The notes: a model not told the origin generated them from the letters alone. Positions 28,297 to 32,303 are shown, counted from the stretch's first letter. The stretch is 64,000 nucleotides of DNA from an uncultured Verrucomicrobiae bacterium (GCA_963836315.1 CAWIJG010000002.1:1447786-1511785); one strand, 5' to 3'. Program-made: numbers and translations.

Positions 28297-29526
28297 TCAT
28301 TCGCGCGCCATGGCGCCGCCAGCAATCCAGCCGGTCGTCCACGCCGCCTGGAAATTGAAACCGCCGGTGATGCCGTCAATGTCCAGCAGTTCACCGGCGA
28401 AATAAAGGCCCGGGCAGACCCGGCTTTGCATCGTCCGGAAATTCACCTCGCTCAGGCGCACGCCGCCGCAGGTCACAAACTCCTCCTTGTTCAGGCTCTT
28501 GCCGGTCACCGGCAATTCCGTCCGGATCAATTGCTGGAGCAGGCTGTGCTGCGCGGAACGCGTGATCACGCCCCAGCGCGTATCCCGCTTCACGCCCGCG
28601 GCCAGGACCAATTGTTCCCACAGCCGCGCCGGCAATGGCGGGATCGGCGTATTCACCACCAGCCGGGCTGGCTGCTGGCTGCGACGCCACTGAAGCTCGG
28701 TCGCAATCTCTTCCTGGTCGAGCTTCGGCAGCCAGTGCACGTGCAGCGGAAACCGGTAGTCGCGATCATGCAACACCCGCGCCCCCCACGCCGAAAGACG
28801 CAGGATCACCGGGCCGCTCAGTCCCGAGTGCGTCACCAGCAACGCGCCGCGCTCCCGCAACTCCGTGTCCGGAACCGAGGCGTCCACCGATTCGACCGAG
28901 ATCCCCGCCAGTTCCCGCAGCCACGGCGTCTCCAGTTGAAACGTGAACAACGATGGCACCGGCGGCTCCAGCGTATGCCCGAGCGACACCGCCACGTCAC
29001 CGGCGGCCGCCGTCCGGCATCCTCCCGTGGCCAATAACAGCCGGTCACAGAACAGCGTCTCGCCGTTGGTTGGCGTCAGGTCGAAACCGCCTTCCGCGCG
29101 ACGGGCGACCCGCTCCACCCGACACGCCGTCCGCAACGTCACGCCCGCCGCTTTGGCCGCGCTCACCAGACAATCGATGATCGTCTGCGACGAATTGCTG
29201 AGCGGGAACATCCGTCCATCGCATTCGGCGTTGAGCTTCACGCCCCGGGCCGCAAACCAGGCGACGGTATCGCGTGCTTGGAATCGTTGAAACGGTCCGA
29301 TCAACTCCTTTTCGCCCCGGGGGAATCTCGTGGCAAAATCCCGGGGATCGAAACACTTGTGCGTCACGTTGCAGCGTCCACCGCCGGAAATCCGGACCTT
29401 GGAAAGAAACTCCGCGCCCCGCTCCAGGATGGTGACCTTGGCATCCGGCAACGCTTCCGCGCACGTGATGGCCGCAAAAAACCCCGCCGCGCCGCCGCCG
29501 ACCACGATGATTTGTCGTGAACTCAT
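28297..29526 (-). CDS. HI0933/YhiN (BaiN-like) flavoprotein
   Basis: GGGAAGFFAA, KVRISGGGRCNVT, GRMFP, VTCGGV, LYFAGELLDIDGITGGFNFQAAWTTG. Confidence 0.93.
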   Translation of the reverse strand: MSSRQIIVVGGGAAGFFAAITCAEALPDAKVTILERGAEFLSKVRISGGGRCNVTHKCFDPRDFATRFPRGEKELIGPFQRFQARDTVAWFAARGVKLNAECDGRMFPLSNSSQTIIDCLVSAAKAAGVTLRTACRVERVARRAEGGFDLTPTNGETLFCDRLLLATGGCRTAAAGDVAVSLGHTLEPPVPSLFTFQLETPWLRELAGISVESVDASVPDTELRERGALLVTHSGLSGPVILRLSAWGARVLHDRDYRFPLHVHWLPKLDQEEIATELQWRRSQQPARLVVNTPIPPLPARLWEQLVLAAGVKRDTRWGVITRSAQHSLLQQLIRTELPVTGKSLNKEEFVTCGGVRLSEVNFRTMQSRVCPGLYFAGELLDIDGITGGFNFQAAWTTGWIAGGAMARE

Positions 29527-29537
29527 GGGAATCCAGT

Positions 29538-29837
29538 TCAGGGATACGGCAACACGCGACGACGCGCGGAATCGGCCTGCGCGCGATATAAAATCGCCAC
29601 ATGGCCGACGATCCAGACCAGTTCGCTGTTCGTGCGTGCCGCCATCTCGGCGGCGAGGGATTTCTTCTCTTCCTTGAACGCGGTGAACTTGATCTTGATC
29701 AGTTCGTGATCGCTTAGCGCCTGCTCGACTGCCGCCAACAACTCGTCAGTCACGCCCGCTTTGCCGACGTACACAACGGGTTCCAGCCGCTGCGCCAGCG
29801 ATTTCAACTTGCTAATTTGTTTGTTCGACAAGCTCAT
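29538..29837 (-). CDS. yhbY: YhbY/CRM-domain RNA-binding protein
   Basis: LKSLAQRLEPVVYVGKAGVT, ALSDHELIKIKF, IVGHVAILYR. Confidence 0.93.
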   Translation of the reverse strand: MSLSNKQISKLKSLAQRLEPVVYVGKAGVTDELLAAVEQALSDHELIKIKFTAFKEEKKSLAAEMAARTNSELVWIVGHVAILYRAQADSARRRVLPYP

Positions 29838-29914
29838 AAGTCACATCCAGCATGGAACCGCGTCTGCTCAACGTCAACGGGAATAGCCCCACGAGAGCCG
29901 AGCAGCCTTTCGGT

Positions 29915-30245
29915 ACCCCCAAATTGGGTTTGTTCTGGCTTTGTGCCAAAAACCACCCTCCCGGGGCTGTTTTCCAGCATTTATTTCCCGTTTTTTGCCT
30001 CTTTTTGCAAAACGAACCCAACTCTGTATTTTTTCTCAACCTATTCATTCCAAGACGCTTCCAGGTTTTTCAGTTGGGTTCGTTTGGCAGAAACACTCTT
30101 TTCTATAGAGGGCTTCCTGCCCGTCGTCATGTCTTCGGCCTTCCCGCATGTCTCTATGATCCATGCTCACACCCCAATTCTCCCACACTTCCTGAAAACT
30201 CGTTAGTGCACTTTGGAAGGTTTGGAAGGTTTGGAAGCTTTTTTC
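29915..30245. repeat. CGAACCCAAC inverted-repeat element, copy A (inverted relative to B and C)
   Basis: 29947-30120 is the reverse complement of about 45645-45826; 30165-30245 matches about 45311-45395, including (TTTGGAAGG)x2-TTTGGAAGC. IR at 30013-30022 and 30073-30082. Confidence 0.9.
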
Positions 30246-30437
30246 ATTGTGAGGTTTGGAGCCGAGCCGCTGGGAGCGGCGGAGCCGAGTCGGACGAGAC
30301 GCCGTCGCGGCAAACGCAACACCGAAGGTGGCCCGAAGGGCGAGCCGAGCGGGAGCGAGCGAGTGCAACGTTTGGAAGCTTTTCTTGGCTGTGACGCGCG
30401 CCACTCCGGCGGTGTTTGAGAAACGTGTTTTGGGGTA

Positions 30438-30468
30438 TTGACCCGTCTATCGCTTCACAGTTTAGGGT
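30438..30468 (+). promoter_or_regulatory. MerR-type promoter with 19-bp spacer
   Basis: TTGACC (30438-43), 19 nt, TAGGGT (30463-68), upstream of the mini-domain gene and merR. Confidence 0.6.
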
Positions 30469-30533
30469 TTGCATCGTGATGGCCATCATGGCGACCGAAA
30501 CAACAACATCGAACGATTGAAAGGAAGCGGCCA

Positions 30534-30719
30534 ATGCAAAAGAAAATGACCGTCGAGAATTGGATTGCCCTGTTCCGGGAACTGGGGCTTGATGATGCGC
30601 AAATGCAGAAATGGCATCGTTTGTTCGAGGCGCGATATCCGGAGGGGCACCAGAGTTTCCTGGAATGGTTGGGGTTGCCACCGGAAAAATGTGCGCTCAT
30701 CCGCACCCAGAGCCGGTAG
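30534..30719 (+). CDS. Stand-alone homolog of the adjacent MerR C-terminal effector domain (61 aa)
   Basis: RBS AAGGAAG; 24 of 56 aligned residues identical to the MerR C-terminus (W..L.R..G.DD..M..WH..FE.R.PE.HQ.FL..LG.P). Confidence 0.85.
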   Translation: MQKKMTVENWIALFRELGLDDAQMQKWHRLFEARYPEGHQSFLEWLGLPPEKCALIRTQSR

Positions 30720-30773
30720 CCGATCCGGGGCGGTGGCAACCGGCGACCGCGGCCCCGCGGCCGGCCTGACATC

Positions 30774-31316
30774 ATGAAATCTTGCACGATTACGAAGCTC
30801 GCCCGTTCGTTTGGATTGTCGCGCAGCACGCTGCTCTATTACGACCGGATGGGCCTGTTGCCGGCTTCGGGGCGAACCGCGGCCGGCTATCGCTGCTATA
30901 CGGATCGGGACCGCGAGCGGCTGGAACGAATCTGTGACTTCCGCCAGGCCGGGCTGGCTCTCGCGGACATCCGGATGCTTCTTTCATCGAAAGGCAAAGC
31001 CCGCGCGAAAGTCCTGGAACGACGGTTCCGCGAATTGGGGAACGAACTTCTCGATTTGAGAAGCAAGCAACACTTGCTGGCCAAGATGTTGAAGGGCATG
31101 GCTGCGGGCGGCTGTCCGCCAGCCGTGGACAAAGACATGTGGGTGGAGATGTTGCGGGCCGCGGGCATGGACGATCGGGCCATGGCACGCTGGCATGCGG
31201 AATTTGAACGGAGAGCCCCGGAGGCGCACCAGAAGTTCCTCGCATCGCTCGGCATTCCGAAAAACGAAATCCTCCGGATTCGGACGTGGTCGGCCGGGTC
31301 CTGGAGGGGAGTGTAG
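30774..31316 (+). CDS. MerR-family transcriptional regulator
   Basis: TITKLARSFGLSRSTLLYYDRMGLL...GYRCY...RLERICDFRQAGLAL; coiled coil; C-terminal effector domain. Confidence 0.95.
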   Translation: MKSCTITKLARSFGLSRSTLLYYDRMGLLPASGRTAAGYRCYTDRDRERLERICDFRQAGLALADIRMLLSSKGKARAKVLERRFRELGNELLDLRSKQHLLAKMLKGMAAGGCPPAVDKDMWVEMLRAAGMDDRAMARWHAEFERRAPEAHQKFLASLGIPKNEILRIRTWSAGSWRGV

Positions 31317-31427
31317 GAAGACCTTCGGCCCGACAAACCGGCGCGGCTATAGGAGAGCGCCCAGCCGCAGGTCTGAGGCTTCGGGAAAACCGTTGGCAGA
31401 AGGTATGATTATGGATAGCATGCGGGC

Positions 31428-32303
31428 ATGAACAAGCTTCCGGATACGGTTCGGATTGAGGCGGGACGGGGTGGGTTGCGCCGCCTGGTGATTGGGACGG
31501 CACAGGCTGACGCGGAGATCTATCTGCAGGGGGCGCACGTGACGCATTTCCAGCCGCACGGTGCAAAACCGGTGCTGTTCATGAGCGCGAAGAGTTGGTT
31601 CGAACCAGGCAAACCGATTCGCGGCGGGGTGCCGATTTGTTTTCCGTGGTTCGGCCCGCGACAGGACGGGAAACCGGGCGCCGCGCACGGGTTCGCGCGG
31701 TTGCTGGAGTGGGAATTGACCGCGGCGGAGCAGGTCGGCGATGGCCCCGTCGAAATCGGGTTGCGGCTGGTGTCCAACGACGCGACCCGCAAGGAATGGG
31801 ACGGAGAATTTGAAGCGGAGTACCGCGTGACCGTCGGCGCGGCGCTGGGCTTGCGGTTGCGCGTACGGAATACCGCCCAACAGCCATTGCGCATCGAGGA
31901 AGCACTGCACACCTATTTGGCGGTTGATGATGTACGGCAGGTGACCATCGAAGGGTTGGCGGGCACGGCGTATTCGGACCGGGTCGGGACGCCCCACGAG
32001 GAGACCGAAGGCGCGGCCCCCATTCGCATCACGGCCGAGACGGACCGGATCTACAGGAACACGCATGCCATGTGTGTGGCGCACGACCCCGGTTGGAAGC
32101 GGCGGTTGGTGATCGAGAAGACCGGCTCGGACGCCACGGTCGTGTGGAATCCATGGATTGCCAAAGCCAAGGCGATGCCTGATTTCGGCGACGACGAATG
32201 GCCGTCGATGTTGTGCATCGAAACCTGCAACGTCCGCGAGCACGCCGTGACCATCGCGCACGGCCAGTCGCACGGCATGGGAGCCGTCATTCGCGTGGAA
32301 TGA
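31428..32303 (+). CDS. D-hexose-6-phosphate mutarotase (YeaD-like aldose 1-epimerase family)
   Basis: QGAHVTHF, PIRGGVPICFPWFG, HGFAR, EALHTYL, VVWNPW, MLCIE. Confidence 0.93.
   Translation: MNKLPDTVRIEAGRGGLRRLVIGTAQADAEIYLQGAHVTHFQPHGAKPVLFMSAKSWFEPGKPIRGGVPICFPWFGPRQDGKPGAAHGFARLLEWELTAAEQVGDGPVEIGLRLVSNDATRKEWDGEFEAEYRVTVGAALGLRLRVRNTAQQPLRIEEALHTYLAVDDVRQVTIEGLAGTAYSDRVGTPHEETEGAAPIRITAETDRIYRNTHAMCVAHDPGWKRRLVIEKTGSDATVVWNPWIAKAKAMPDFGDDEWPSMLCIETCNVREHAVTIAHGQSHGMGAVIRVE

Follow-up and report, generated by a model that had tools for sequence, protein, structure and literature searches.

What does a small gene contribute when it stands directly upstream of a MerR-type regulator and its product resembles the C-terminal domain of that same regulator? 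We have addressed this question for a locus of an uncultured Verrucomicrobiae bacterium, found in a stretch of 64,000 nucleotides (GCA_963836315.1, CAWIJG010000002.1:1447786-1511785; hereafter the window, with positions counted from its first letter). The locus lies on the + strand, as do all its parts described below, and consists of an open reading frame (ORF) of 61 amino acids (aa) at 30534-30719, a 54-bp gap and a merR gene of 180 aa at 30774-31316; from promoter through merR the module occupies only ~880 bp. An initial annotation, made from the window's sequence, had described the 61-aa gene and the MerR downstream of it and had read them as a sensor accompanied by a sponge for its ligand. 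Both ORFs were confirmed, and every particular given for them was correct. The analysis presented here shows that the pair is old, occurs in hundreds of genomes and is widely conserved together with its promoter. The function that we favour, and to which we give an even chance of being right, is that of a TipA-like sensor and a sequestering protein in an operon of two genes that is self-contained and controls itself.

The small protein is an ancient paralog of the MerR C-terminal domain

In a BLASTP comparison residues 10-58 of the small protein align with MerR residues 123-171, with 23 of 49 positions identical (47%, E 9e-16). A global alignment of the small protein with the C-terminal domain gives 43% identity, which is consistent with the 24 identities in 56 positions counted in the initial annotation. 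The conserved W, WH, FE, HQ and FL that it listed were all found in the alignment, as W10/W123, W27H28/W140H141, F31E32/F144E145, H39Q40/H152Q153 and F42L43/F155L156. A domain tree groups all 47 MerR C-terminal domains in one clade (support 0.97), separate from all 79 small proteins, and this points to a single old duplication with joint inheritance since. The median ratio of nonsynonymous to synonymous substitution rates (dN/dS) of the small gene is 0.21 over 171 moderately diverged pairs, so the small ORF is a genuine protein-coding gene under selection. A recent, decaying duplication absent from other genomes, which had been considered as the alternative, is ruled out by 80 intact orthologs, the one ancient split and the dN/dS value. 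The description of the small protein as a diverged, separately encoded paralog can thus be extended: it is ancient, under purifying selection, and co-inherited with MerR and the promoter in many phyla.

A scan of species-representative genomes provided the 80 loci, which come from at least 8 phyla and span the Verrucomicrobiota, Acidobacteriota, Geobacterales/Desulfuromonadales, Syntrophales, Desulfobacterales, Omnitrophota, Nitrospirota, Lentisphaerota, Magnetococcales and Gammaproteobacteria. The search for stand-alone homologs beside merR that the initial annotation had suggested found the pair in 66 of these 80 loci, where a gene for a MerR bearing this C-terminal domain lies downstream of the small gene in the same orientation, after a gap of 11-259 bp (mostly 45-75). 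No conserved neighbours other than merR were seen across the related loci. At the protein level, a word-indexed search returned 81 clusters of 55-105 aa (most of them 58-61) with 51-92% identity, and phmmer against 1.84 billion cluster representatives gave 378 matches, comprising stand-alone forms of ~60 aa and MerR-fused forms of ~175-185 aa.

The domain is unevenly distributed among the clades sampled. It occurs in 15 of 301 genomes of Verrucomicrobiota, and all 15 have exactly two hits ~600 bp apart, which is the pair. It was found in 79 of 301 genomes of Desulfuromonadia, mostly with two hits and in some with a third, these being counts of hits and not of pairs. Among 400 Gammaproteobacteria there were 14 positive genomes, seven with two hits (six adjacent pairs and one on two contigs) and seven with a single hit. 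Orphan small paralogs of 63-71 aa are present in Geomonas/Citrifermentans (L038, L045, L060, L063, L070, L074, L076 and L078); they have no adjacent merR, their upstream sequence differs (no TTGACCYGTCTA element), and their genomes also carry the full module.

A nearly invariant promoter with a single site per genome

The small gene of the window is preceded by the -35 hexamer TTGACC (30438-30443), a 19-bp spacer CGTCTATCGCTTCACAGTT (30444-30462), presumed to be the MerR operator, and the -10 hexamer TAGGGT (30463-30468; family consensus TAGCGT). An alignment was made of the 130 bp that precede the small gene in the 79 related loci with enough upstream sequence. A 31-bp element, TTGACC-YGTCTAYNGCTTCACASTT-TAGCGT, is almost invariant in 68 of these 79 loci and in the window, and its spacer is always 19 bp; the MerR-type promoter TTGACC-19 bp-TAGGGT that had been noted at 30438-30468 therefore recurs through the family. 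This TTGACCYGTCTAY promoter precedes the first-gene position. Across the phyla in which it is nearly invariant the proteins are only ~55-65% identical, and as judged from the alignment the conservation of the promoter is far beyond chance. An over-long spacer of 19-20 bp is a hallmark of MerR-activated promoters (PMC8113463).

The spacer contains a weak pseudo-dyad, GTCTAC(C|G)CTTCAC (GT..A.C|G.T..AC), with ~6-7 of 14 positions symmetrical and its centre at spacer position 8.5. We take this to be about where the dyad of the mer operator sits. The left half of the operator, GACCYGTCTAY, is common to MerR-only relatives, while the right half differs. It is very probable that this MerR binds the 31-bp element.

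A degenerate pattern allowing 3 mismatches has one site in the window's 4.2-Mb genome. With a weight matrix built without the window site, that site scores 51.4 bits and the next best in the genome 8.1; restricted to the central 23 bp, the matrix gives 40.3 and 13.6 bits, respectively. Eight other genomes have one site per module. A wider regulon was considered and rejected, since neither the pattern nor the weight-matrix scan found a further site in the window's genome, and elsewhere only a decayed module and one acidobacterial cargo gene came to light. The latter is a second operator site in an acidobacterium, which drives a separate cargo gene. The former is a third site in Geobacter sp. 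OR-1 (L090, 516-612), a perfect copy of the promoter joined directly to the last ~17 codons of merR (…LPSLGISEKEALLIRNW*) and for this reason interpreted as the remains of a module; a gene for a hydrolase of the metallo-beta-lactamase (MBL) fold lies 350 bp downstream of it. As the element is unique in the genome, the regulator appears to control essentially its own two-gene operon only, and it is probably autoregulated. No relevant member of known RNA families was found at 29500-31500, and a standard promoter and terminator scan, which is blind to 19-bp spacers, returned nothing useful.

RNA features and the expected ratio of the two products

In most loci the sequence GTCATGGCCATGAC begins ~7 nt after the -10 hexamer, at the predicted transcript start. 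The window has the corresponding palindrome or stem-loop at 30474-30491, identified by comparison, with the core GTGATGGCCATCAT at 30476-30489; relative to GTCATGGCCATGAC it carries the compensated change C3>G with G12>C. Among 34 distinct canonical sequences double changes occur in five of the six proposed pairs and pairing is kept in 90% of cells, values that for most measures are reached by no more than 1 in 500 shuffles. In verrucomicrobial relatives the stem is lengthened to 9 bp with a GUGU loop, and in distant members its place is taken by longer or unrelated stems. Both the covariation and these unrelated stems favour an RNA stem-loop over a protein site at fixed spacing, and a role of the element as a DNA palindrome may still be kept in mind.

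A GC-rich hairpin, unrelated in sequence between lineages, lies between the two genes in almost every locus. In 64 loci tested against dinucleotide shuffles its median folding free energy (dG) is -26 kcal/mol and its median z is -2.9, with z<-2 in 47; a T-rich tail like that of an intrinsic terminator follows in 16 of the 64. By comparative folding the window has this stem-loop at 30719-30765, where it may be an attenuator or a 3' stabiliser. Translation signals differ as well. The small gene of the window has the Shine-Dalgarno-like sequence AAGGAAG at 30521-30527, and across loci the small gene matches a mean of 4.7 of the 6 positions of AGGAGG, compared with 3.9 for merR (Wilcoxon p 2e-6). 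In bacterial mRNAs stem-loops at the 5' terminus are protective, and hairpins between cistrons serve for attenuation or for stabilisation of the 3' end. The 5' stem-loop, the intergenic hairpin and the better Shine-Dalgarno sequence together predict a stable, well-translated message for the small gene and much less of merR.

Domain structure and conserved residues

The regulator has two parts of very different familiarity. Residues 4-72 (30783-30989) form a winged helix-turn-helix (HTH) DNA-binding domain according to Pfam, profile and structure searches; the matches to PF13411 (MerR_1, 3.5e-16) and PF00376 (1e-11) are both above gathering scores. A sequence profile run against the PDB places this half closest to TipAN (2vz4, 1.5e-18) and MtaN (1jbg, 2.1e-18). 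The AlphaFold2 (AF2) model of MerR, with a predicted local distance difference test (pLDDT) score of 85.9, shows the canonical winged HTH, a long helix alpha5 at residues 76-110 (30999-31103) that would form the dimerisation coiled coil, a low-confidence linker, and four helices at 120-179 (31131-31310). The last are the same four helices as in the stand-alone small protein, which is modelled with pLDDT 90.9 and helices at 7-16, 21-34, 36-45 and 50-60. Foldseek matched the whole MerR to PDB entries in the N-terminal ~110 residues only (MtaN, HiNmlR, CadR, CueR and BmrR), and for the small protein it found no match in the PDB (best E 2.1). The C-terminal 60 residues of MerR and the small protein have no Pfam match at E<=1 and no NCBIfam match. 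Moreover, full-text searching of the literature found no description of this gene pair or domain. The pair thus seems to be built on a previously undescribed domain family.

Against PDB sequences the small protein gave no match beyond weak similarity, in a profile search, to designed engrailed homeodomains (E 0.09), and it contains an HTH-like pattern, L..LGL...Q...W. A eukaryotic protein of 2210 aa with eight homeodomains (P0136) was retrieved with the small protein by phmmer (E 2e-9); its eight weak matches are to helix 2-turn-helix 3 (L..LGL...Q...WF) and constitute a resemblance of pattern, not evidence of homology. DNA binding by the small protein was considered and rejected, since L30 and E32 occupy the positions at which homeodomains contact DNA and the net charge averages -2.8.

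Conservation is concentrated in a few positions. The invariant residues of the small protein are W27, H28, F31, E32, P36, H39, F42, L43, W45, L46 and R57. In its numbering, H28, E32, P36, H39, F42 and L43 are invariant in both paralogs, and W10, G18, W27, F31, L46 and R57 (97-100%), D20 (82-94%) and M24 (83-90%) are nearly so. MerR-only relatives keep these shared residues too, which indicates a role in the function or fold of the domain itself. On helix 2, H28 and E32 are separated by one turn, and H39 comes just past the P36 turn, on helix 3; a putative 2-His/1-Glu site made of these three residues is plausible. The suggestion of a metal or heme as ligand comes solely from them and should be taken as tentative. 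Other positions distinguish the two partners. F14, L30, Q40, E44 and W45 are specific to the small protein, and a patch of E143, R146, R147 and E165 is specific to paired MerR proteins, the MerR-only relatives being without it.

Fusions and other genes in the first position

Related operons vary in what accompanies the regulator. In four loci of the Geobacter type (L023, L035, L047 and L049) MerR is fused C-terminally to a class I S-adenosylmethionine (SAM) methyltransferase, giving proteins of 421-428 aa, and the small gene still precedes these fusions; in P0217 (356 aa) a MerR with this C-terminal domain is fused to a GNAT acetyltransferase. The best NCBIfam match of the fused methyltransferase is to the DVU_1556 family, below cut-off. 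Neither fusion gives a clue to the ligand, because their matches are generic and all below cut-offs.

In Gammaproteobacteria the same type of promoter and regulator also occurs without the small gene. On a Vibrio plasmid (L094) an EamA/DMT transporter gene, which overlaps with merR, is placed under the promoter TTGACCTGTCTACAGGTTTCAGGTT-TAGACT. The position holds a 164-aa protein in L102 (643-1134) and a 133-aa helical protein in two gammaproteobacterial genomes (L104, 739-1137; L106, 737-1135), and in L103 and L105, an Acinetobacter plasmid and a Pseudoalteromonas plasmid record, merR itself comes first after the promoter. Identity between the L102 protein and the product of the acidobacterial gene behind the extra operator (L091, 594-1250) is 35% (E 4e-26); the acidobacterial copy has a twin-arginine translocation (Tat)-like signal. 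Neither the L102 protein nor that of L104/L106 matches Pfam. Against the PDB the L102 family has a single weak match, to the aromatase/cyclase BexL (E 0.09), and the idea of an SRPBCC-like fold is unproven; the 133-aa protein, which has no match there, may be another uncharacterised cargo family. A MerR-only homolog (L092) is found on the 302-kb mobilizable plasmid p4 of Acinetobacter haemolyticus (CP085288.1), divergent from genes for a DUF3147 protein and a VIT-family Fe/Mn transporter.

The MerR-only loci with the same type of promoter indicate that the regulator can work without the small protein. From these comparisons the first position behaves like a swappable cargo slot, occupied by an exporter, by putative binding proteins or, most often, by the free sensor domain. 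The exporter, methyltransferase, acetyltransferase and other slot or fusion partners are typical resistance cargo.

Comparison with known systems

The regulator is a member of the MerR family: the winged HTH, the alpha5 helix (the AF2 helix at 76-110, with ~110 residues aligned by Foldseek) and the promoter with a 19-bp spacer are all present. To judge from its sequence, it does not belong to the Cys-loop metal sensors (MerR, CueR, ZntR, CadR/PbrR). Its scores against the NCBIfam models of metal sensors are 43-50 bits, far from the cut-offs of 143-168, and reflect mainly matches to the N-terminal HTH and to a portion of the coiled-coil helix. Across homologs neither alpha5 nor the sequence after it has a conserved Cys or His, and Cys113 of the window is not conserved. 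In GolS/GolB, CueR/CopZ and PbrR/PbrD a MerR sensor switches on a small soluble protein that binds the inducer, but there binder and sensor domain are not homologs, whereas here the two are paralogs. Stand-alone MerR effector domains also exist, among them an integron-cassette drug-binding module (PMC3048380) that is GyrI-like and related to BmrR. The GyrI-like fold is unrelated to the present domain. Unlike the present pair, none of these metal-binder and GyrI-like systems is a closed two-gene loop with paralogous members.

The closest parallel is with the TipA class, whose proteins have been described as minimal autoregulated multidrug-resistance systems (PMC7762955). The locus would be TipA-like in its working but is not a member of this class. 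TipAL/TipAS of Streptomyces, SkgA, Mta and AlbA/AlbAS are likewise MerR activators, and TipAN and MtaN are the nearest to the N-terminal domain found here. Regulation of the operon by its own product from a long-spacer promoter would be a further likeness, as would the free copy of the effector domain that we propose to be made in excess and to sequester the inducer. Some JGI records label proteins of this family 'thiopeptide resistance regulator'. The differences concern how the free domain is made and what it is. In TipA and AlbA the short form arises from an internal in-frame start, whereas here it is encoded by a separate upstream gene and is ~45% identical to the fused domain; a Met at MerR residue 122 is found in only 23% of homologs, which does not support an internal start. 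The stoichiometry of TipA is set by alternative initiation, but here apparently by RNA hairpins and Shine-Dalgarno strength. The TipAS domain (PF07739) is also distinct from the ~55-residue four-helix unit of this family, which has no PF07739 match. The structural comparison with TipAS and AlbAS that had been suggested produced no relationship, as no Pfam, PDB-sequence or Foldseek match was obtained for this domain.

A second parallel is in gene order. In that respect sinI, whose small product is a homolog of the regulator's C-terminal domain, lies directly before sinR on the same strand, and residues conserved between both proteins make up the heterodimer surface (PMC3163267). The likeness to sinI-sinR, and to SlrA/SlrR, also of Bacillus subtilis, is in layout only: SinR, a repressor of the Xre type, governs a large regulon and sinI is under the control of an outside signal, Spo0A, whereas here the regulator is a MerR and the promoter is its own and unique in the genome. 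The small protein and MerR had no match to Pfam SinI, and the domain they share is unrelated to it.

Proposed mechanism and alternatives

In the mechanism that we favour, a MerR dimer would occupy the promoter at 30438-30468 and activate it upon binding of a signal to its C-terminal domain. This signal would most likely be a toxic small molecule or a metal ion, and the conserved surface formed by W, H28, E32, H39 and R57 would hold it. Transcription would begin at the 5' stem-loop, and the GC-rich hairpin downstream of the small gene would end or stabilise most transcripts. Owing to this hairpin and to the better Shine-Dalgarno sequence of the small gene, induction would produce a large excess of free domain over regulator. 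The free domain would bind the same ligand and soak it up, so that the cell is protected, and the switch would shut off again once free ligand falls. A sensor and sponge function of this kind is supported indirectly by the closed loop, the signals for excess, the TipA/Mta-like DNA-binding domain and the resistance-type cargo. A more specific version is doubtful: the WH..FE..P..H unit would be a new ligand-binding family that holds a metal or redox cofactor between protomers, each providing two His and one Glu, and the ratio of products in the sense-and-sequester circuit would be set by the 5' stem-loop and the intergenic attenuator.

Several observations weigh against sequestration. The dyad symmetry of the operator is only weak. 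The hairpins of the window itself are no better than those of shuffled sequence (z -0.26 for the 5' stem-loop; z -0.85 for the intergenic one, in spite of a dG of -29.3 kcal/mol, because of its high GC content), so that support for them is comparative and comes from relatives. A helical bundle of 55 residues is small for a drug pocket, and binding would probably need a dimer. Small paralogs in Geomonas stand as orphans under other promoters. Finally, E143, R146 and R147 are conserved in the C-terminal domains of paired MerR proteins and absent from both MerR-only relatives and the small protein; this patch could mark where the small protein makes direct contact, a possibility that would speak for an antagonist of the SinI/SinR type. 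The C-terminal domain would then be a protein-protein module for self-association or autoinhibition, to which the small paralog binds or whose docking site on the regulator it takes, and the heterocomplex would generate feedback or a bistable switch. The gene layout is the same as that of sinI-sinR, the paired-type E143, R146/R147 and E165, set against L30, a mostly acidic position 34 and R/K52 in the small protein, fit a co-evolved contact, and the orphans resemble SlrA-like extra antagonists. However, with a single operator per genome such a circuit would have no output other than itself, and the slot in related operons holds an exporter or other cargo, not a partner of the regulator. The small protein is also predicted to have a compact, confident fold alone (AF2 pLDDT 91), signals for its large excess would be needless for a stoichiometric antagonist, and Pfam SinI is not matched. 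We regard an antagonist, which is the main rival and had not been raised in the initial annotation, as rather unlikely.

Two further schemes we consider improbable. The small protein might be the primary receptor, MerR being activated by a ligand-bridged heterodimer of the small protein and the C-terminal domain, for example through a metal site with H28, E32 and H39 from each. This would agree with the invariance of the 2-His/1-Glu set in both paralogs and with the strict co-occurrence in Verrucomicrobiota, where it holds for 15 of 15 positive genomes. But MerR-only relatives keep both the residues and the promoter without the small gene, and therefore the domain can work without a partner; besides, a required co-sensor under the very promoter it activates would create a runaway positive loop. 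Alternatively, the small protein might act on another cellular target, protein or RNA, and have only the fold in common with the sensor domain. Its specific invariant residues E44, W45, Q40 and F14, absent from the C-terminal domain, could then be explained, as could the orphan copies, which with their own upstream sequence are taken to be independently expressed. Nothing points to such a target, however; the net charge of ~-2.8 and the replaced homeodomain DNA-contact positions argue against nucleic-acid binding, and the polar residues in common with the sensor domain would be left unexplained.

Surroundings of the module

In the window the small gene and merR share one reading frame (30534-31313), with one TAG and 18 sense codons between them; this is probably coincidence, since it is not kept in relatives, the closest of which (L001) is out of frame. 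Nucleotide similarity to L001 begins at 30428, 10 bp ahead of the -35 hexamer. Upstream of the module a segment of ~600 bp without a convincing ORF (29850-30437) extends from a YhbY-like gene on the minus strand (29538-29837). This segment contains three short tandem copies of TTTGGAAGG (30213-30245) and a related copy, GTTTGGAAGCTTTT, near 30370.

Significance of the module

If the proposed function is correct, the module would be a second, independent route to the principle of TipA, reached by gene duplication instead of alternative translation starts, and it would apply this principle to a domain without a database model or structural relative. If instead the small protein is an antagonist, the MerR family would, to our knowledge, have in this pair its first partner switch in the style of SinI/SinR. 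The module is common in environmentally important anaerobes, namely the Geobacterales, Syntrophales, Verrucomicrobiota and Acidobacteriota, and bacteria of anaerobic sediment and soil are widespread carriers, with the domain in about a quarter of the sampled Desulfuromonadia genomes. Once a ligand is found, the conserved promoter, regulator and binder could potentially serve as an orthogonal biosensor. Discovery of that ligand would assign a function to several hundred 'hypothetical' proteins of 60 aa and to their 'MerR family' partners.

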